Program-made: the position numbers and the translations under genes
Shown here: positions 47,181-50,444 of the stretch, in pieces
Position numbering within the stretch: the stretch's first letter is position 1
Layout: every line of letters starts with the position of its first letter
Notes under the pieces: model-generated
The model's input: only the letters and a program-made list of their open reading frames with translations
Told to the model about the DNA's origin: nothing
Databases searched by the model: none
Source: Eledone cirrhosa
Lineage: Eukaryota
DNA length: 64,000 nt
Direction: 5' to 3'
Assembly (NCBI GenBank): GCA_964016885.1
Contig: OZ024741.1
Span: 347,448,001 to 347,512,000 of the forward strand

Positions 47181-50100
47181 TAAGTATGCATGTATACGTA
47201 CATACATATATGTATACAGACGTACAGTAGCATGCACATATATATATATATATACATATATATATACAAATGCATACAGGTACACATACATATATGCACG
47301 TATCAGTTTAGCGGCGCTAACGTCGCTTTGTTCGTTTGTAAACAAACTGAACAGCCTGAATTTATGCCATACGGTGTTAAGGCAACCACGTCACCTTTTT
47401 GTTCAACACTGACACAGGAACGATGTACTAGTTTCAAGCTTGTTAGCTATCATCAGCACCGTTTACCCATCTGCCAGATAGTTGAACGTTCGAAAGTATA
47501 TACTTTCCTTATGAAAATTAACGGCTGAGCAGCCTAATTTGCATATTGAGTGAGTTAAATCGGTCAGGCATACCGAAAACGATAAATTGAAACAAAATGA
47601 AAACGAAATTTCATTTCTCACTCTTAGTATGGCACTTACTTAAATGTAAGTATGCATGTATACGTACATACATATATGTATACAGACGTACAGTAGCATG
47701 CACATATATATATATATATACATATATATATACATATGCATACAGGTACACATACATATATGCACGTATCAGTTTAGCGGCGCTAACGTCGCTTTGTTCG
47801 TTTGTAAACAAACTGAACAGCCTGAATTTATGCCATACGGTGTTAAGGCAACCACGTCACCTTTTTGTTCAACACTGACACAGGAACGATGTACTAGTTT
47901 CAAGCTTGTTAGCTATCATCAGCACCGTTTACCCATCTGCCAGATAGTTGAACGTTCGAAAGTATATACTTTCCTTATGAAAATTAACGGCTGAGCAGCC
48001 TAATTTGCATATTGAGTGAGTTAAATCGGTCAGGCATACCGAAAACGATAAATTGAAACAAAATGAAAACGAAATTTCATTTCTCACTCTTAGTATGGCA
48101 CTTACTTAAATGTAAGTATGCATGTATACGTACATACATATATGTATACAGACGTACAGTAGCATGCACATATATATATATATATACATATATATATGCA
48201 TACAGGTACACATACATATATGCACGTATCAGTTTAGCGGCGCTAACGTCGCTTTGTTCGTTTGTAAACAAACTGAACAGCCTGAATTTATGCCATACGG
48301 TGTTAAGGCAACCACGTCACCTTTTTGTTCAACACTGACACAGGAACGATGTACGAGTTTCAAGCTTGTTAGCTATCATCAGCACCGTTTACCCATCTGC
48401 CAGATAGTTGAACGTTCGAAAGTATATACTTTCCTTATGAAAATTAACGGCTGAGCAGCCTAATTTGCATATTGAGTGAGTTAAATCGGTCAGGCATACC
48501 GAAAACGATAAATTGAAACAAAATGAAAACGAAATTTCATTTCTCACTCTTAGTATGGCACTTACTTAAATGTAAGTATGCATGTATACGTACATACATA
48601 TATGTATACAGACGTACAGTAGCATGCACATATATATATATATATACATATATATATATACATATGCATACAGGTACACATACATATATGCACGTATCAG
48701 TTTAGCGGCGCTAACGTCGCTTTGTTCGTTTGTAAACAAACTGAACAGCCTGAATTTATGCCATACGGTGTTAAGGCAACCACGTCACCTTTTTGTTCAA
48801 CATAAATTCAGGCTGTTCAGTTTGTTTACAAACGAACAAAGCGACGTTAGCGCCGCTAAACTGATACGTGCATATATGTATGTGTACCTGTATGCATATG
48901 TATATATATATGTATATATATATATATATGTGCATGCTACTGTACGTCTGTATACATATATGTATGTACGTATACATGCATACTTACATTTAAGTAAGTG
49001 CCATACTAAGAGTGAGAAATGAAATTTCGTTTTCATTTTGTTTCAATTTATCGTTTTCGGTATGCCTGACCGATTTAACTCACTCAATATGCAAATTAGG
49101 CTGCTCAGCCGTTAATTTTCATAAGGAAAGTATATACTTTCGAACGTTCAACTATCTGGCAGATGGGTAAACGGTGCTGATGATAGCTAACAAGCTTGAA
49201 ACTAGTACATCGTTCATGTGTCAGTGTTGAACAAAAAGGTGACGTGGTTGCCTTAACACCGTATGGCATAAATTCAGGCTGTTCAGTTTGTTTACAAACG
49301 AACAAAGCGACGTTAGCGCCGCTAAACTGATACGTGCATATATGTATGTGTACCTGTATGCATATATATATGTATATATATATATATATGTGCATGCTAC
49401 TGTACGTCTGTATACATATATGTATGTACGTATACATGCATACTTACATTTAAGTAAGTGCCATACTAAGAGTGAGAAATGAAATTTCGTTTTCATTTTG
49501 TTTCAATTTATCGTTTTCGGTATGCCTGACCGATTTAACTCACTCAATATGCAAATTAAGCTGCTCAGCCGTTAATTTTCATAAGGAAAGTATATACTTT
49601 CGAACGTTCAACTATCTGGCAGATGGGTAAACGGTGCTGATGATAGCTAACAAGCTTGAAACTAGTACATCGTTCCTGTGTCAGTGTTGAACAAAAAGGT
49701 GACGTGGTTGCCTTAACACCGTATGGCATAAATTCAGGCTGTTCAGTTTGTTTACAAACGAACAAAGCGACGTTAGCGCCGCTAAACTGATACGTGCATA
49801 TATGTATGTGTACCTGTATGCATATGTATATATATATATGTATATATATATATATATGTGCATGCTACTGTACGTCTGTATACATATATGTATGTACGTA
49901 TACATGCATACTTACATTTAAGTAAGTGCCATACTAAGAGTGAGAAATGAAATTTCGTTTTCATTTTGTTTCAATTTATCGTTTTCGGTATGCCTGACCG
50001 ATTTAACTCACTCAATATGCAAATTAGGCTGCCCAGCCGTTAATTTTCATAAGGAAAGTATATACTTTCGAACGTTCAACTATCTGGCAGATGGGTAAAC

Positions 50101-50444
50101 GGTGCTGATGATAGCTAACAAGCTTGAAACTAGTACATCGTTCCTGTGTCAATGTTGAACAAAAAGGTGACGTGGTTGCCTTAACACCGTATGGCATAAA
50201 TTCAGGCTGTTCAGTTTTTTACAAACGAACGAAGCGACGTTAGCGCCGCTAAACTGATACGTGCATATATGTATGTGTACCTGTATGCATATGTATATAT
50301 ATATGTATATATATATATATATGTGCATGCTACTGTACGTCTGTATACATATATGTATGTACGTATACATGCATACTTACATTTAAGTAAGTGCCATACT
50401 AAGAGTGAGAAATGAAATTTCGTTTTCATTTTGTTTCAATTTAT
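47181..50444. mobile_element. Retrozyme-like array 2: head-to-head palindrome (47181-48802 minus, 48801-50444 plus) of 460-468 bp units
   Basis: Same unit as array 1. HHR cores at - 47419-47463, 47885-47929, 48345-48389 and + 49170-49214, 49630-49674, 50098-50142. Confidence 0.9.

Follow-up and report, generated by a model that had tools for sequence, protein, structure and literature searches.

Non-LTR retrozymes of animals are tandem, non-coding repeats that carry one type I hammerhead per unit, are present in thousands of copies and have a self-paired monomer (PMC7229834; bioRxiv 10.64898/2026.07.22.740005). The same two sources put forward, as a hypothesis, that PLE enzymes copy circular retrozyme RNA. 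PLE insertions are themselves marked by an inverted, 5'-truncated copy placed head-to-head, a tail at one end, (TA)n targets and two internal start sites, and the papers that describe them treat the tail as optional or often one-sided and invoke self-priming or endonuclease resolution rather than twin priming (PMC3846280; PMC8557442; PMC11167929). In L1 twin or dual priming, primers are supplied by the two target strands, a 5' segment becomes inverted, and the internal junction shows some microhomology (PMC2837659). These sources already report retrozymes, inverted PLE copies, the tail and the two start sites. Inverted retrozyme arrays, a strict pairing of ends, and twin priming by PLEs were not met with in a literature search whose scope left most subscription papers and the older Penelope work outside. 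The word 'inverted' does not occur in the main text of PMC7229834, the parts consulted of bioRxiv 10.64898/2026.07.22.740005 contain no inverted arrays, and those of PMC9977147 hold nothing bearing on inversions; novelty may further depend on what the life-cycle figure of PMC7229834 and the genomic end maps in PMC11167929 show.

The repeat family described here, found in a window of 64,000 nucleotides from Eledone cirrhosa (contig OZ024741.1, positions 347,448,001 to 347,512,000), shares each of the features listed above for non-LTR retrozymes and for PLE insertions, and the primers, inversion and junction of L1, yet departs from all three systems. Whereas the described non-LTR retrozymes form head-to-tail arrays (PMC7229834; bioRxiv 10.64898/2026.07.22.740005), many of the arrays here stand head-to-head, and the 466-bp unit exceeds the 170-400 nt retrozyme RNAs of the first source while falling within the 51-972 bp of the second. 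A further difference from known retrozymes is that no homologous autonomous pLTR was found in the two PLE families compared. Unlike PLE insertions, the retrozyme lacks an open reading frame, can be multimeric in both arms, and shows an almost strict complementarity between the types of its two outer ends; unlike L1 there is no poly(A), and both start sites are fixed and internal (PMC2837659).

The focal locus is a 3.2-kb head-to-head palindrome with about 3.5 hammerhead-repeat units in each arm, the arms being joined 5' to 5' (Table 1). Positions within the unit are given as q, where q1 is window position 48801 read on the hammerhead-carrying strand; a T end is a 3' end at q244-253 and an S end is a 3' end at q170-197. 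The two arms are 98% alike, consist of units of 460-468 bp (typically 466 bp) and have both 3' ends in (TA)n, and since both flanks are (TA)n, a target-site duplication is unreadable. A preliminary description of this DNA had reported some 3.5 units per strand diverging from the centre, with a strand switch at a CA microhomology 18 nt beyond the cleavage site in the extended stem I, and both claims hold: the first base of the left arm, q425, is the 18th past the predicted cleavage site (after q407) and lies within the predicted extended stem I. The spacer of about 40 nt that had been placed at the centre is present as an unpaired segment, but it is not foreign, being the 5' end of the left arm. 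The centre junction occurs once in the assembly that was searched (3.0 Gb, 1,796 contigs). The mirror symmetry claimed for the locus extends to one 6-bp deletion but not to eight substitutions or indels private to one arm, a +2 change in a TA run that lies off the mirror register, or the outer ends, which are unlike. With 2.2 private variants per kb against a sample median of 0.56, the focal locus is older than most loci sampled; it is an ordinary member of a large class and, as a single locus, not special.

Table 1. Features of the focal palindrome and of a second array of the same family (window positions)
Feature	Position	Strand	Remarks
Second array of the same family	34301..36900	+	single arm; 5.5 identical 476-bp units; q251 end into (TA)n
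Left (TA)n tract	47087..47180	.	left half of likely target
Left arm	47181..48802	-	q425 (5' end, 48802), three full units, short end q186 (3' end, 47181)
Type I hammerhead	47419..47463	-	core 47456
Type I hammerhead	47885..47929	-	core 47922
6-bp TA-tract deletion, left unit 2	48179..48211	-	
Type I hammerhead	48345..48389	-	core 48382; substitution at 48355 breaks palindromic loop 3
Unpaired 40-nt centre	48761..48800	-	5'-most left-arm stretch, q427-466
CA microhomology	48801..48802	.	5'-to-5' junction
Right arm	48801..50444	+	q1, three full units, tailed end q251
Type I hammerhead	49170..49214	+	core 49177; predicted cleavage after 49207
Same 6-bp deletion, right unit 2	49348..49380	+	
Type I hammerhead	49630..49674	+	core 49637; predicted cleavage after 49667
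Type I hammerhead	50098..50142	+	core 50105; predicted cleavage after 50135
Tail	50380..50444	+	q187-251, right end only
Right (TA)n tract	50445..50479	.	

Three hammerhead cores lie in each focal arm at unit spacing. The motif comprises CUGAUGA, a 4-bp stem II, GAAAC-UA-G, GUA and a 7-bp stem I with an extension, as in type I hammerheads; stem III consists of one pair with a palindromic loop, and the base of stem II is a U-U pair. A U-U pair at this place has likewise been described for HHR_Amex2 of the axolotl (PMC7229834), and hammerheads with a weak stem III have been described as acting as dimers in tandem repeats (PMC4209133). Rfam returned zero hits at gathering thresholds in the whole window, the best sub-threshold match being Hammerhead_HH9 (18.5 bits against a gathering threshold of 52, E 0.036), and the putative hammerheads are assigned by their motif and predicted fold, not by Rfam. 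The longest ATG frames in the unit, 48 aa in sense and 112 aa in antisense, indicate that it is non-coding; an RT plus GIY-YIG open reading frame is absent from the unit, which is not classed as an autonomous PLE. The monomer is strongly self-paired (z -7.9), in part owing to its TA tracts. In its tandem type I hammerheads, its non-coding character, its many dispersed copies and a monomer size within the known range, the family conforms to the non-LTR retrozymes. Among variants confined to single units, the same G-to-A change at q299 (window 49559) is the commonest (4 of 251 singletons), occurs at several loci and marks a possible copying hot spot.

The family is abundant, with 10,488 exact matches to a 30-nt ribozyme core in the assembly, 889 exact q251 ends and 310 q192 ends. 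Loci were sampled in three sets: a first fetch of 40, partly picked for long arrays; a q251-selected set of 80 taken from the first 100 listed ends on contig C1, minus loci already fetched and the last six; and the first 20 q192 ends listed on C2. The sample favours young copies on two contigs. In 142 stretches, which include one locus fetched twice, adjacent opposite arms were head-to-head in 105 cases and tail-to-tail in four. The first 100 ribozyme-core hits form 55 clusters, of which 14 are divergent and 0 convergent, a count that underestimates pairs because a core is needed in both arms. The preliminary description had proposed a check on the frequency of inverted arrays across the genome; such pairs are common, 57 of the 80 q251-picked loci having a head-to-head partner (54 in a first pass and three more once the low-complexity filter was removed). 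The second array of the window sits in the TA-rich end of a PLE-like fragment. At L082 and L083, older arrays of the same orientation are stacked one behind another across some 9 kb, as though the TA tracts of old copies served as targets for new ones.

The outer ends of these pairs follow a simple rule. Among the 57 partners of q251-picked loci the far end was short in 53, of another kind in two and off the stretch in two, so that no 251/251 pair was seen among the 55 that could be scored; conversely, 18 of 20 short-end-picked loci had a partner, whose end was q251 in 15 and, in one each, short, of another kind or off the edge. The end positions are sharp, at exactly q251 in 56 of 61 and at q186, q189 or q192 in 59 of 62, and (TA)n follows 121 of the 123 ends that could be scored, one end per locus having been preselected for that. 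Single-armed copies, scored by eye, use either end, and independent choice would therefore yield many T/T pairs. The two arms of a pair nearly always finish at two different, fixed and mutually exclusive sites, q251 and about q186-192.

The same rule is found in an unrelated and autonomous element. A young PLE family (2,640 first-look candidates; 40 scored, 99% alike), with RT and GIY-YIG among its Atlas neighbours (0.95-0.98), also inserts head-to-head into (TA)n, and in the 20 loci fetched, 15 of the 16 inverted insertions with both ends visible combined one short and one tailed end, the exception being L251. The tail is 59-65 nt long in the retrozyme and about 88 nt in this PLE family, as against the 30-40 bp described for PLEs. 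The unit has no homology to the young PLE at L139, which is kept as a mechanistic parallel: a PLE without sequence common to the unit shows mechanism, not partnership. A search of two PLE families (30 loci each) found no homology to the unit beyond nested retrozyme copies, in a genome that holds many more families. The PLE at L101 was considered as a driver and set aside, its apparent sharing of the short end being confined to two of 30 copies and read as nested repeats. Pfam gave no family for eight PLE-like fragments of the window, nor for three of five longer frames from the loci; PLE identity is based on tblastn links, visible motifs and the Atlas. PLE-like fragments at 12213-15573, 29895-34300 and 54516-57030 have inverted arms that are 90-98% alike and GIY-YIG-like motifs by eye, in agreement with the inverted PLE insertions that the preliminary description had noted elsewhere in the window. 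The earlier reading of the palindrome as a PLE-type inverted insertion of a non-coding hammerhead array is supported.

Central junctions were compared in 75 young pairs (identity at least 95%), a locus fetched in duplicate being counted once. The 5' positions of the two arms are independent: they are no more than 45 nt apart in 14 of the 75 pairs, close to the 14.6 expected (KS p=0.93), and arm lengths are uncorrelated (rho -0.04, n=64). Junctions free of filler show microhomology of at least 2 nt in 29 of 49 cases, where 8.8 would be expected, and are blunt in 6 against an expected 26.7; the remaining 26 of the 75 contain filler, some of it visibly templated from nearby unit sequence. Such a combination of microhomology and filler resembles the products of polymerase-theta end joining. 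In the filler of the L095 junction, about 69 nt long, a 12-nt piece of the unit is repeated five to six times. None of the 150 arm 5' ends lies within 2 nt of the cleavage site, so copying passes through it, and proximity of the 5' end to that site, as at the focal locus, was rejected as a rule of the family. A mild excess downstream of the site, 20 of 150 ends in q408-440 against 10.6 expected (p=0.005, for an interval picked post hoc), may be due to pausing within the long stem I.

The focal palindrome is a head-to-head retrozyme insertion into (TA)n, probably made with the enzymes of a PLE through twin priming on one RNA, repeated copying of the monomer and joining at microhomology. In the proposed sequence of events, a PLE endonuclease would cut both strands of a (TA)n tract, and a single retrozyme RNA would be primed by both 3' ends, at q251 by one of them and at q186-192 by its counterpart. 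Each reverse transcriptase would then read past the ribozyme site and copy a number of units set by chance. The simplest way to do so is to travel repeatedly round a monomer in circular form, though a linear uncleaved multimer fits some loci. Microhomology-mediated end joining would finally unite the two cDNA ends. With a repeat template the two cDNAs would overlap and yield long palindromes instead of the adjacent segments seen in L1. In vitro, a PLE cuts and extends both strands, starting at two internal sites that bound the tail; the start site is alike on both strands, however, and ribozyme cleavage is not needed, which counts against this explanation (PMC11167929). The broader proposition, that PLE integration is twin priming by rule, with both strands priming one RNA at the sites bounding the tail, and that the palindromes record rolling-circle reverse transcription of an animal circular RNA, is advanced tentatively, its chances being judged somewhat short of one half.

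An unlikely alternative is that the two cut strands prime on two separate RNAs, brought together by an asymmetric PLE dimer with a different start site for each subunit. A PLE dimer has been predicted (PMC11167929), and the independence of arm lengths agrees with this scheme, as does the behaviour of the short-end arms: of 44 long ones none stalls at q245-258, which counts against a single circle. The scheme would also be suited by L139:5250-7987, where some 10 nt of filler connect a T arm of the retrozyme head-to-head with a frame of the young PLE that is truncated at its 5' end, but the far end of that PLE arm is interrupted. Two observations point instead to one molecule. Arms from q251 that are 55-67 nt long, and thus stop at about q185-197, number 6 of 64, whereas an exponential fit predicts 1.2 (p=0.001; neighbouring bins 3 and 3), and an arm halting at the second-primer site is the classical product of twin priming as drawn for L1 (PMC2837659); the focal arms both run for 3.5 units, and neither stops there. 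At L168, moreover, a single SNP found nowhere else in the assembly is present in all eight covering units of both arms.

The loci differ in what they suggest about the form of the RNA template. At L113 (L113:775-3353, G000:C1:184445-184448 kb) a 7-nt deletion seen in no other array is present in five of five full units; it destroys the core and can be placed so as to end at the cleavage site, and is a possible trace of a circle that was trimmed and ligated. L113 and L168 offer indirect genomic hints of circular RNA and, together with the 14 of 55 long loci that lack unit-private variants outside the TA tract, speak for repeated copying of a monomer. Two other candidate signs were discarded: cleavage-site deletions in general, with two multi-base events against one at a control site, leave L113 as a single case, and an SNP at L137, taken at first for a private variant, has 44 matches and marks a sub-lineage. 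Variants shared by both arms lie in or near register from the 3' ends at L051 and L087, and, like the chimeric L251, they are better explained by a linear RNA of heterogeneous sequence than by a circular monomer. At L251, 3 kb of PLE with its nested retrozyme is duplicated up to the T end of that retrozyme, the copies being 99% alike and the join present twice in the assembly; the duplication (L251:422-8420 with L264:1-1340, G000:C1:214361-214370 kb) is inverted, and its far side is the short site of an older retrozyme. The arrangement may represent PLE read-through RNA primed at retrozyme sites. Unit variants that recur with a period of 2 or 3 (L120, L161 and L072) and three identical neighbouring units in L182 point to later unit duplication or to multimer templates. 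Unprocessed RNA was the main substrate of the PLE studied in vitro (PMC11167929), and eight of nine Xenopus dimers failed to cleave (bioRxiv 10.64898/2026.07.22.740005). Circular monomers and linear multimers may both be used as templates.

The periodic and run-like variants of L072, L120, L161 and L182 can also be read as traces of short two-primer insertions that grew later through unequal exchange and were made uniform by conversion, rolling reverse transcription playing no part, and variants shared across arms but off register (at L071, and the +2 change of the focal locus) lean the same way. This history is improbable for the family as a whole. It requires an arm that already exceeds one unit, and it is at odds with arrays of 8-18 units that have no unit-private variant outside the TA tract (L063, L124, L154 and L168); among the 55 long loci such variants are lacking in 14, and heterogeneity does not rise with array length (rho -0.28, n=55).

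The 6-bp TA-tract deletion that the preliminary description had placed in the second unit of both arms was confirmed in the second full unit of each. Its 33-nt pattern has three exact matches genome-wide, two at the focal locus and the third in L068, a short and unrelated copy, whereas the undeleted 27-nt pattern has 3,120. The presence of so rare a change twice in one locus implies a copying event and not recurrence. Whether the count starts at the centre or at the 3' ends (1,028 and 1,088 nt, a gap close to the length of the tail), the deletion keeps its register; the equal length of the focal arms brings this about, and a shared template and later conversion both fit. That the template already carried the deletion is given a chance only marginally short of even, and later arm-to-arm conversion one of about even. 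No parent array with the deletion was found, and a single assembly may lack one. The +2 change in the first TA run is found in left unit 1 and right unit 3, off the mirror register; any change in that run was seen in just 3 of 126 comparable units elsewhere, and its presence twice at the focal locus and off register favours conversion or chance. Clear sharing of variants across arms was found in 117 groups only at the focal locus, L051, L071 and L087, and is mirrored at the focal locus alone. A trimer circle as focal template was rejected, the order of variants being reversed between the arms, and a unit-length direct repeat across the centre (466-460-468 twice; L075 similar) was abandoned when no mechanism was found for it and it failed in the fuller data of L087.

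The mirrored deletion, the equally long focal arms and the 40-nt loop are what would be expected if one cDNA had snapped back and copied itself into a second arm, and self-priming on an antisense template has been proposed for head-to-head PLE repeats (PMC3846280). Such a fold-back origin, which the preliminary description had suggested for the focal locus, finds no support in the family and is rated slightly less probable than later expansion: the positions of the junctions are independent where the opposite is predicted, arm lengths do not correlate, the outer ends differ by the tail in nearly every case, and the shared variants of L051, L071 and L087 are not mirrored. Arm-to-arm conversion, its companion proposal, likewise fails for the architecture but survives as one of the two explanations of the deletion.

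Long palindromes are a weak point of assemblies, but a chimeric or fold-back read or a mis-assembly is highly improbable here, the flanks differing in sequence, the arms finishing at two family-typical sites with eight variants private to one arm and a unique, asymmetric junction, and the same polarity and end rule recurring at dozens of loci on several contigs and in an unrelated PLE family. The palindrome is real in the assembly and very probably also in the animal.

The window contains several further elements. One, small and distinct from the family, combines TA flanks with a hammerhead-like motif in inverted form (CTGATGA or CTGAAGA followed by GAAAC) and is found at 21395-21519, 27483-27590, 28139-28330 and 50560-50680, one of these several copies lying immediately to the right of the palindrome. 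Two hammerhead-like cores of another family, at 23322 and 40753 (minus strand), lie within short inverted repeats. A fragment of a Mariner-type transposase HTH (PF17906, E 1.5e-9) is present at 46332-46772 on the minus strand, and a 369-aa frame at 61904-63013, with zero Pfam hits and followed by a second, low-complexity frame, is possibly the first frame of a LINE.

The focal locus is most likely without host function, a selfish insertion being the default. A transcript read through it in either direction would contain three sense hammerheads and could fold into a 1.6-kb hairpin, and ribozyme cleavage and dsRNA are possible consequences. The wider interest of the family concerns the PLEs: how their inverted repeats and one-sided tails arise is a problem that PMC8557442 names as open. 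If PLE integration is indeed twin priming, one mechanism would account for the inverted pLTR of these elements as well as for the tail at one end. The family supplies natural products of recent date in the hundreds, as counted by the 889 exact q251 ends, and they follow a sharp rule that can be tested in the existing in vitro PLE system. For the genome of the animal itself, the family would mean that many near-perfect palindromes of kilobase size have been seeded across it, each a possible source of dsRNA and of instability.
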